Sequence record: ON637250.1
Strand: one strand, 5' to 3'
DNA length: 39,100 bases
DNA from: Escherichia phage 6925
Shown here: positions 412 through 1,603 of the stretch, one piece after another
How positions within the stretch are numbered: the first letter of the stretch is position 1
Layout: the number at the start of each line of letters is the position of its first letter
Translations under genes and position numbers: made by a program
Notes under the pieces: generated by a model
Databases searched by the model: none
What the model was told of the DNA's origin: nothing
What the model saw: only the letters and a program-made list of their open reading frames with translations

Positions 412-442
412 TTGACTATAGGTCCAGACTATGGCCTAATAG
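412..442 (+). promoter_or_regulatory. Candidate host sigma70-type early promoter (T7 A1-like), weak -10
   Basis: TTGACT at 412-417 followed by CTATAGG in the spacer, as in T7 A1; the -10 candidate CCTAAT/TAATAG is a poor match. Confidence 0.3.
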
Positions 443-551: not shown

Positions 552-590
552 TTGACAGGCAGTAACGACTTAAAGTAATATGTACCACAT
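552..590 (+). promoter_or_regulatory. Host sigma70-type early promoter (T7 A3-like)
   Basis: TTGACA (552-557), 18-nt spacer, TAATAT (576-581), then GTACCACAT as recalled downstream of T7 A3. Confidence 0.6.
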
Positions 591-649: not shown

Positions 650-755
650 ATGCTCTTTAACAATCTGGATAAACTCTTAATGTGCGCCGATAGCGACTAA
701 CTACAGGGCCTTTGAGTCTACATCTGAAGGCCCTGACTGATAGTCACTAACTTAA
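650..755 (+). promoter_or_regulatory. Early leader with RNase III-like processing hairpin (T7 R0.3 analogue)
   Basis: GCTCTTTAACAATCTGGATAAA matches the T7 leader upstream of gene 0.3 as recalled. An imperfect inverted repeat (AGCGACTAACTACAGGGCC ... GGCCCTGACTGATAGTCACT) forms a stem with internal bubbles. Confidence 0.5.
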
Positions 756-767
756 AGGATGGACACT

Positions 768-1013
768 ATGAAACACTTAAGCACAATCACTAAACGCAAT
801 GAAGTATTCGTGAACACTAAAGGTTATGCGTGGATTCAGCTTAAAGAGATGACAGGATCGCGTCACCGTGTGGTAGTGCGCAAGGTATCAAGCAAGCAGT
901 TCAGCAACTACAGCGTCGATACTGTGCGTATAGACAACGAGACATACCTGATAGACTCGCAGATAACCGTGAGTCCTACAGTGGGCGTCTCAGCTCCTTA
1001 TTTCGCTAACTGA
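768..1013 (+). CDS. Hypothetical early protein, first gene of the early operon (about 81 aa); no T7 counterpart recognised
   Basis: ORF 759..1013 in the track. AAGGA at 755-759 sits 8 nt before the ATG at 768; the ATG at 759 has no spacer. It lies upstream of the ocr-like gene. Confidence 0.5.
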   Translation: MKHLSTITKRNEVFVNTKGYAWIQLKEMTGSRHRVVVRKVSSKQFSNYSVDTVRIDNETYLIDSQITVSPTVGVSAPYFAN

Positions 1014-1014
1014 G

Positions 1015-1068
1015 AGTGATTAACTACAGGTCGTTAGACTGATAGCGGCCTGACTGATAGTCACTAAC
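1015..1068 (+). promoter_or_regulatory. RNase III-like hairpin repeat (early intergenic)
   Basis: A second copy of the CTACAGGTC ... GGCCTGACTGATAGTCACTAAC motif, immediately before the ocr-like RBS. Confidence 0.4.
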
Positions 1069-1096
1069 ACATAATTAACTTTGAGAGGATATAACT

Positions 1097-1603
1097 ATGG
1101 AACGTAATGCTAACGCATACTATGAGCTGCTGGCTGCAACCGTTGAGGCATTTATCGAGCGTATTCAGTACGACCACCTGACTCAAGATGACGACTACAG
1201 CACTGCGCTGCATGAGGTCGTAGACGGTCAGGTTCCACACTATTACCACGAGATTTTTACGGTGATGGCTGCTGATGGTATAGACAACGAGTTCGAAGAC
1301 TCTGGGATGATACCTGAAACCAAGGACGTAACGCGTATCCTACAAGCTCGCATCTATGAGGCGCTTTATAACGATGTGTCTAATAGCTTGGATGTAGTCT
1401 GGTTTGAGGATGAAGAGGCAGACGAAGAGGATGAATATTGGGTAGTTGACGCTAAAACAGGCGCAATAATTGTGCAAGCTGTAGCTCTTGAGGTCGCTAC
1501 TGCATGTGCCAAGGTTAACTATGCGGCAGGTCGCCACCTGAAGGTGGAAGACATCAATGATAACGTAGTGTTCGACCCTGCGGCTGAGGACTGCGAGCGA
1601 TGA
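1097..1603 (+). CDS. 0.3: Ocr-like anti-restriction DNA mimic (T7 gene 0.3 homologue) with a C-terminal extension of about 50 aa
   Basis: [43 protein letters not shown] aligns with T7 Ocr as recalled ([43 protein letters not shown]), followed by an acidic [10 protein letters not shown] run. RBS GAGAGGA 7 nt upstream. T7 Ocr is 117 aa; this ORF is 168 aa. Confidence 0.85.
   Translation: [168 protein letters not shown]

Follow-up and report, generated by a model that had tools for sequence, protein, structure and literature searches.

Gene 0.2 of Escherichia phage 6925, a conserved early gene upstream of ocr, lies in an exchangeable cassette between RNase III-type hairpins and is a candidate anti-defense gene

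Ocr, the product of gene 0.3 of phage T7, is a DNA-mimic protein acting against restriction and BREX. As is known from the work of the Molineux and Studier laboratories, DNA entry of T7 is driven by transcription, and the effectiveness of Ocr depends on its synthesis preceding the entry of the remaining genome. The same region also holds the host-takeover genes 0.4, 0.6 and 0.7; among the small T7 proteins the targets are FtsZ for gp0.4, MreB for gp0.6 and RNA polymerase for gp2 and gp5.7. A lower stem, an internal loop and an upper stem form the classical architecture of the early RNase III sites of T7. The small gene orf24 has been assigned to the accessory region that contains ocr, and its reported phenotype is the triggering of a prophage system in the strain ECOR61; PARIS, Ronin and EcoR22I are systems that sense Ocr (Silas et al., bioRxiv 10.1101/2023.04.06.535777).

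We analyzed the leading region of Escherichia phage 6925 (ON637250.1) within a window of 39,100 nucleotides, which is the whole stretch of DNA under study. The phage is T7-like and belongs to the genus Kayfunavirus (K1F/LM33_P1 group); the leading 3 kb of the window are 98-99% identical to vB_EcoP-101136BS1 and LM33_P1. The gene treated here starts with the ATG at 768 and ends with the TGA at 1011-1013, as read from the sequence. Its 81-aa product, gp0.2, begins MKHLSTITKRNEVFVNTKGYAWIQLKEM and reads MKHLSTITKRNEVFVNTKGYAWIQLKEMTGSRHRVVVRKVSSKQFSNYSVDTVRIDNETYLIDSQITVSPTVGVSAPYFAN in full, with a mass of about 9 kDa, a pI of 9.82 and 11 K+R residues against 6 D+E. The initial annotation had described an ORF for a basic protein of about 81 aa at exactly these coordinates, and both its extent and its charge were borne out. 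It had also called the gene novel, which is wrong because the ORF is gene 0.2 of phage K1F, catalogued since 2005 (CAJ29341 in AM084414). In LM33_P1 the counterpart is gp02 (YP_009324476), which differs from the phage 6925 copy in two residues (N9K and A31S). The K1F protein is 94% identical and the K1F/LM33_P1 range is 94-98%; in these phages the gene is found at the same place, between the leader RNase III site and ocr, and nothing material differs. A hypothetical protein deposited for Escherichia phage 6925 itself is 100% identical, and the gene is matched over its full length by PHROG 10124 (phrog_10124, no assigned function) with an E value of 3.8e-39. Depositors of phiKT ORF31 and EC1-UPM gp09 had already noted the likeness to K1F gp0.2, and the gene is labelled hypothetical in dozens of genomes. 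It is a known gene, but one from a functionally uncharacterized family of hypothetical proteins, and to a specialist one more small early gene ahead of ocr in a K1F-like phage would be no surprise. The features of the region are collected in Table 1.

Table 1. Mapped elements of the early region of phage 6925 (positions in the window)
Feature	Position	Strand	Basis or detail
Candidate A1-like host sigma-70 early promoter, TTGACT-17 nt-CCTAAT	412-440	+	sequence read-out
A3-like host sigma-70 early promoter, TTGACA-18 nt-TAATAT	552-581	+	consensus scan, 10/12 matches
Conserved leader block GCTCTTTAACAATCTGGATAAAC	652-674	+	comparison with relatives
RNase III-type two-stem hairpin, site 1 (R0.3-like), 5' of gene 0.2	691-749	+	folding
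20-nt direct repeat CCTGACTGATAGTCACTAAC, left copy, 3' arm of site 1, cassette joint	732-751	+	exact repeat
Shine-Dalgarno-like AAAGGATGG of gene 0.2	754-762	+	5 nt 5' of ATG
Gene 0.2 homolog, 81-aa basic all-beta protein (predicted), PHROG 10124	768-1013	+	profile, identity, selection, AlphaFold
RNase III-type two-stem hairpin, site 2, gene 0.2-ocr gap, overlapping the TGA stop	1011-1069	+	folding
20-nt direct repeat CCTGACTGATAGTCACTAAC, right copy, 3' arm of site 2, cassette joint	1049-1068	+	exact repeat
ocr (gene 0.3), 168 aa, next gene downstream	1097-1603	+	Pfam PF08684 E 4.4e-28; PHROG 2568 E 2.3e-51
Phage RNAP gene 1	2901-5582		

Gene 0.2 is placed between host-type promoters and gene 1 on the same strand, as is a class I gene. 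The A1-like promoter is given as a candidate because it did not pass the -10 rule of the consensus scan; its TTGACT -35 element is also present 5' of the leader in Klebsiella Przondovirus. The leader block downstream of the promoters is almost unchanged in Kayfunaviruses with and without gene 0.2 and can still be recognized in Klebsiella Przondovirus. An RBS belonging to gene 0.2 and a position ahead of ocr had been proposed from the outset, and both were confirmed, the former by the Shine-Dalgarno-like sequence and the latter by the PF08684 match of the downstream gene. The Shine-Dalgarno region is kept in the Kayfunavirus copies, and it is arranged with respect to the start codon as in ocr, whose RBS is located at 1083-1095. 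The Shine-Dalgarno sequence includes an in-frame ATG (759) that no homolog uses. We did not adopt this ATG as the start because the PHROG profile and all homologs begin MKHLS; in an 84-aa version of the protein it is residues 4-84 that align to positions 1-77 of the 77 in PHROG 10124.

An ORF named gp0.1 (337-555), which is annotated in K1F, LM33_P1 and other phages, was considered as an earlier first gene. It overlaps the early promoters and contains stops or frameshifts in five close relatives, namely ZCEC02, JSS1, Ro45lw and two more; judging from these comparisons it is probably no genuine gene. Since the gp0.1 ORF is broken in the five relatives, the first gene in the early operon that can be taken as credible is gene 0.2, in agreement with the place that it had been given initially. 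We also rejected an antisense phage promoter inside gene 0.2 (974-983, minus strand), which is without the TAAACTAT specificity block common to the ten real plus-strand phage promoters. One of these ten sites, which have (A/T)TAAACTATCACTATAGGRA in common, is located at 2806-2828, about 75 nt 5' of the RNAP gene (2901), and fully matches the phage's own promoter consensus (TTAACTATCACTATAGGAC), which suggests that the polymerase may raise the expression of its own gene. An array of five imperfect 17-nt direct repeats (AACCATAAGTCACAACC) was noticed at 179-277, close to the left end and ahead of the early promoters.

Homologs of gene 0.2 were found by tblastn in 118 phage records. Between five phage lineages dS is saturated while dN lies at 0.2-0.45, and omega, where it could be computed, ranges from 0.08 to 0.19 (about 0.1). 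Gene 0.2 is under strong purifying selection. The PHROG match, the 118 records and the saturated dS with low dN put the ORF far beyond chance, and it is a real protein-coding gene, as had been supposed when it was first marked.

Site 1 folds with a dG of -25.6 kcal/mol (z -4.9), and none of 200 shuffled sequences was equally stable. For site 2 the values are -23.8 kcal/mol and z -5.1. Comparable two-stem elements are found at about 1745-1797 and about 2100-2153. Eight sites drawn from the window, K1F, JSS1, an IMG/VR Kayfunavirus and a Klebsiella Przondovirus have one architecture in common, in which an internal loop separates a lower from an upper stem, and compensatory double changes preserve 6 of the 18 pairs of this common structure. 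A conserved R0.3-like leader ahead of the gene had been postulated and was recovered here as site 1, which has its structure in common with the seven other sites. No family of Rfam matched the hairpins. At the level of structure the gene 0.2 cistron is bounded by RNase III-type elements; that both hairpins are cleaved by RNase III is something we infer by analogy with the early sites of T7.

The 3' arms of both hairpins consist of the same 20-nt repeat, and the spacing of the two copies is 317 nt. This is exactly the size of the indel that separates phage 6925 from relatives lacking gene 0.2: homology to these phages stops at 751 and restarts at 1049. ZCEC02, JSS1 and Ro45lw are without precisely these 317 nt, and in all three site 1 runs directly into the ocr RBS. 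In two Kayfunavirus contigs from IMG/VR the slot upstream of ocr is taken by an unrelated acidic ORF of 58 aa (MKIIAMNEELG...; PHROG 20418, function unassigned; 2384-2560 in L028 and 898-1004 in L027), which is preceded by the same site 1 and followed by a near-identical site 2. The exact site-1 junction sequence used as query was matched by eight IMG/VR contigs, of which four have an empty slot, two carry gene 0.2 and two the 58-aa cargo. Presence of the gene varies between conserved flanks, the leader and ocr, in close relatives, as is characteristic of an accessory gene. Absence from otherwise near-identical relatives had been named beforehand as an outcome that would speak against a function. 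The absence was indeed observed, most clearly in ZCEC02, where the flanks are 98% identical and gene 0.2 is missing, and it means that the gene is dispensable. The conclusion of functionlessness did not follow, since absence combined with strong purifying selection makes the gene accessory and not thereby functionless.

A second cassette of the same design is present in the window at 1745-2156. It contains a Cys-rich ORF of 75 aa (1813-2040; CxxHxn...CDHC; PHROG 32657, function unassigned), flanked by the RNase III-like elements already named (about 1745-1797 and about 2100-2153); in K1F, JSS1 and others a single site takes the place of the two. The breakpoints of early-region homology to relatives cluster at RNase III-like sites. 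In these phages early-gene cassettes are gained, lost and swapped exactly at duplicated RNase III-type sites, and such duplications offer a simple rule for locating accessory early genes in T7-like phages, drawn from the two cassettes of phage 6925.

We then looked at the distribution of the family beyond the closest relatives. When 1.84 billion representative proteins were searched exhaustively with a profile, a small family of 17 clusters was obtained at E < 1e-3, nearly all of them with lengths of 65-90 aa. Homologs in Kayfunavirus are 82-98% identical, with about 70 records at an identity of at least 80%, and the left end of phage 6925 is common to about 244 records. In Klebsiella Przondovirus the identity is 68-70%, and here the homolog is again the first gene and again bracketed by hairpins. 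Homologs in phiKT (Ermolevavirus) and PGT2 are 59% identical. Outside these phages, homologs occur within an array of small genes in Phapecoctavirus (genomes of about 150 kb; 69-74% identity) and in the early region of N4-like Gamaleyavirus, 2.5-3.6 kb from the left end (36-51%). The carriers are virulent phages of Enterobacteria. This left end is present in 59 Salmonella-phage records and gene 0.2 in only one Salmonella-phage record, but phylogeny confounds the comparison, as the Salmonella Typhi phages are closely clustered. No copy of gene 0.2 was found in plasmids, complete E. coli genomes or 185,579 species-representative genomes. In PV615262.1, labelled 'Acinetobacter phage vB_Aba_01KA', gp0.2 is 97.5% identical to the phage 6925 copy, which is unexpected for a gene of the coliphage Kayfunavirus type, so that the host label may merit checking.

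Divergent members (33-46% identity) were found on long T7-like contigs of four lineages, which carry a T7-type kinase and RNAP farther downstream. In three of the four no sizeable plus-strand gene stands between the gap at the genome end and the homolog; L021, the fourth, has one ORF of 69 aa ahead of it. A SAM lyase is encoded one to two genes downstream of the homolog in L021 and L022, and the direct downstream neighbor in L021 and L024 is a homolog of orf24 (E 9e-17). The family is in this way co-located with known counter-defense genes, that is ocr in phage 6925, the SAM lyase in L021 and L022, and the orf24 neighbors. Gene 0.2 has been transferred between unrelated phage families and keeps its position at or near the leading end, beside anti-restriction genes. 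The first sizeable early gene of one T7-like metagenomic phage (L019, 5001-5570) encodes a 189-aa protein, P0053, with an N-terminal gp0.2-like domain and a C-terminal domain of about 120 aa. The latter gave only a sub-threshold match to DUF7447, and a Rosetta-stone link through it was dropped, as it matches no neighbor gene in other phages.

With a shallow alignment AlphaFold returned a model of gp0.2 at pLDDT 63; it is superseded by the model obtained after the divergent members had been added (pLDDT 87, pTM 0.74). The predicted core, residues 1-70, is an all-beta domain of seven strands, and the tail, residues 71-81, is of low confidence. In many members the tail contains a conserved APYF motif, and others stop right after the core. 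R38 and Y60 are invariant in the family alignment and F45, S46, N47, V53 and D63 are conserved to at least 90%. The core motif RK[VI]xS[KR]xFSN[YWF]S[VI]DTVR...YL[IV]DSQ, which marks the family, is present in gp0.2, as is a conserved RHRVVVRK strand. Searches for homologs and related structures, the check that the initial annotation had proposed, succeeded in part: they led to the homologs and to PHROG 10124, and matched neither a solved structure nor a characterized family. Foldseek against the PDB gave nothing informative (best E 0.9), the structure search of BFVD returned solely uncharacterized proteins of other podoviruses, the best E value among PDB sequences was about 1, and matches in Pfam, NCBIfam and PADLOC were at chance level with none recurring across members. 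Gp0.2 resembles no characterized family and, as far as its sequence tells, is without enzyme-like features. A narrow profile had matched a Gram-positive amidase with five SH3_5 repeats. We rejected kinship with SH3b/SH3_5 (PF08460): the match consists of a short GYxW...GxRxxV hairpin multiplied over identical repeats and is gone with a broader profile, and neither Pfam nor structure comparison supports it.

In its setting gene 0.2 is similar to ocr of T7, likewise a class I gene of the immediate-early type that lies at the leading end, has an RBS of its own and is preceded by an RNase III site. The two proteins are not homologous: Ocr of phage 6925 is acidic (pI 4.05), helical and a member of PF08684, whereas gp0.2 has a pI of 9.8, is predicted to be all-beta and has no Pfam match. 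A DNA mimic of the Ocr type was also discarded on the basis of the pI of 9.82, the predicted all-beta rather than helical fold and the lack of a PF08684 match at E values up to 1. The T3-type SAM lyase (S-AdoMet_lyase, PF23780) holds the anti-restriction position near gp0.2 homologs in two lineages; it is an enzyme of about 140-160 aa with an unrelated sequence, while gp0.2 has no catalytic signature. Like orf24 and other genes of the ocr accessory region, gene 0.2 is small, variable, non-essential, early and located beside ocr. The sequence of orf24 is unrelated and a phenotype has been reported for it, whereas the gp0.2 family is absent from that screen: in a motif search we found it neither in the set of 200 accessory genes that Silas et al. 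had tested nor in the follow-up paper. T7 gp0.4, gp0.6, gp2 and gp5.7 are similar in length (50-90 aa), in presumed stoichiometric binding and in early or middle timing. They differ in that they are not present-or-absent cassettes like gene 0.2, and the general searches with gp0.2 gave no sequence or fold similarity to any characterized family or solved structure. The literature searched contained neither transcript or protein data nor phenotypes or interactions for any member of the family, and it gave no match for K1F together with gp0.2 or for phrog_10124. Three leads were dismissed: JSS1_004 in the literature is the gp0.7 kinase homolog and no evidence on gp0.2, the K1B4 transcriptome comes from an unrelated phage, and a machine-learning preprint on anti-defense is unrelated to gp0.2.

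We hold it to be highly probable that gene 0.2 is expressed and acts as an accessory early effector of one kind or another. As to its action, the most likely of the explanations considered is that gp0.2 neutralizes a host defense left uncovered by Ocr or SAM lyase, to which we assign a probability of roughly 0.4. The initial guess of a 'defence or host-function inhibitor' seems reasonable in this context, because the gene lies in the ocr accessory region, is polymorphic in presence, has moved across phage families and has Ocr or SAM lyase as neighbors. Its rarity in Salmonella phages, within the phylogenetic limits stated, and the lack of cellular copies were likewise counted in favor. In T7-like phages proximity to ocr or SAM lyase is a weak argument, since the same region also holds host-takeover genes, and gp0.2 could itself be such an effector that binds RNA polymerase, a division or cytoskeletal protein, a nuclease or nucleic acid and thereby reprograms the cell. 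It shares size class, timing and genome region with T7 gp0.4, gp0.6, gp2 and gp5.7, and its carriers have only enterobacterial hosts in common. The pI of 9.8, the RHRVVVRK strand and the invariant R38 are compatible with binding to nucleic acid or to an acidic surface, and the basic pI would suit a nucleic-acid binder equally well. There is also no 0.7 kinase between ocr and gene 1 in this Kayfunavirus clade, so that other shut-off functions may be needed. However, near-identical phages do without gene 0.2, some of them with unrelated cargo instead, which is more typical of strain-specific counter-defense, and the family and structure searches revealed no similarity to a known takeover protein or nucleic-acid-binding fold. 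We place host takeover second, as a possible but rather doubtful explanation.

A factor acting between phages or against satellites, which excludes superinfecting phages or blocks abortive-infection systems sensing early proteins such as Ocr, is improbable and ranks third. It is suggested by the neighboring orf24 family, which triggers a prophage-encoded system, and by the sensing of Ocr through PARIS, Ronin and EcoR22I (bioRxiv 10.1101/2023.04.06.535777) together with the position of gene 0.2 directly upstream of ocr in phage 6925. The gp0.2 family is also found in phages in which SAM lyase replaces Ocr or neither of the two is annotated, and is hence not tied to Ocr. Last in the ranking, and very improbable, is the absence of any protein function, the cassette being selfish or neutral DNA or having an effect through its RNA alone, such as that of a spacer or hairpin tuning ocr expression. 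Dispensability in near-identical relatives and the RNase III-type site that the cassette brings along would agree with this. It is contradicted by the strong purifying selection on the amino acid sequence with saturated synonymous sites in five phage lineages, by the confident and compact predicted fold (pLDDT 87), by motifs kept across members that are 33-46% identical, by the conserved RBS and by the retention of the ORF in Phapecoctavirus and N4-like phages, which are without the Kayfunavirus RNA context.

The expression and action of gp0.2 might proceed as follows. By analogy with T7, host RNA polymerase would transcribe gene 0.2 first, from the A-type promoters, while the genome is entering the cell. 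The flanking RNase III-type hairpins could then release it as a small mRNA of its own, and this processing would leave ocr with its normal 5' end. As a small, presumably non-enzymatic protein, gp0.2 would act stoichiometrically by binding a host macromolecule. The target may be an enterobacterial factor that has to be neutralized at DNA entry, most likely a component of a defense system. A more far-reaching proposal, in which gp0.2 stands for a new immediate-early class of anti-defense proteins with an unseen small beta fold, kept at or near the leftmost early position to neutralize, during DNA entry, an enterobacterial defense outside the reach of Ocr and SAM lyase, and traded as a cassette through joints at RNase III sites, is tentative, and we consider it rather doubtful.

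Should the anti-defense explanation be correct, gp0.2 would represent a new anti-defense family with a new fold, and this would help to explain and to engineer the host range of the Kayfunaviruses and Przondoviruses used against pathogenic E. coli and Klebsiella. Near-identical coliphages of the therapeutic type (K1F/LM33_P1 group) that differ only by the 317-nt cassette represent a natural test system. Gp0.2 is a decent candidate for anti-defense discovery, as its model is confident and unlike any solved structure and a natural deletion series is at hand.

Two further observations concern ocr and its downstream neighbor. A very basic ORF of 49 aa at 1600-1749 (pI 10.6, PHROG 5058) overlaps the ocr stop codon in an ATGA, suggesting translational coupling to ocr. 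Ocr itself comprises 168 aa in phage 6925 compared to 110 aa in JSS1 and L028, and homology to JSS1 omits positions 1426-1585 of the window, which lie within ocr. The shorter proteins and the skipped stretch together point to an extra segment of about 53 aa near the C-terminus of the phage 6925 protein; this segment (EYWVVDAKTGAIIVQAVALEVATACAKVNYAAGRHL...) is non-acidic.
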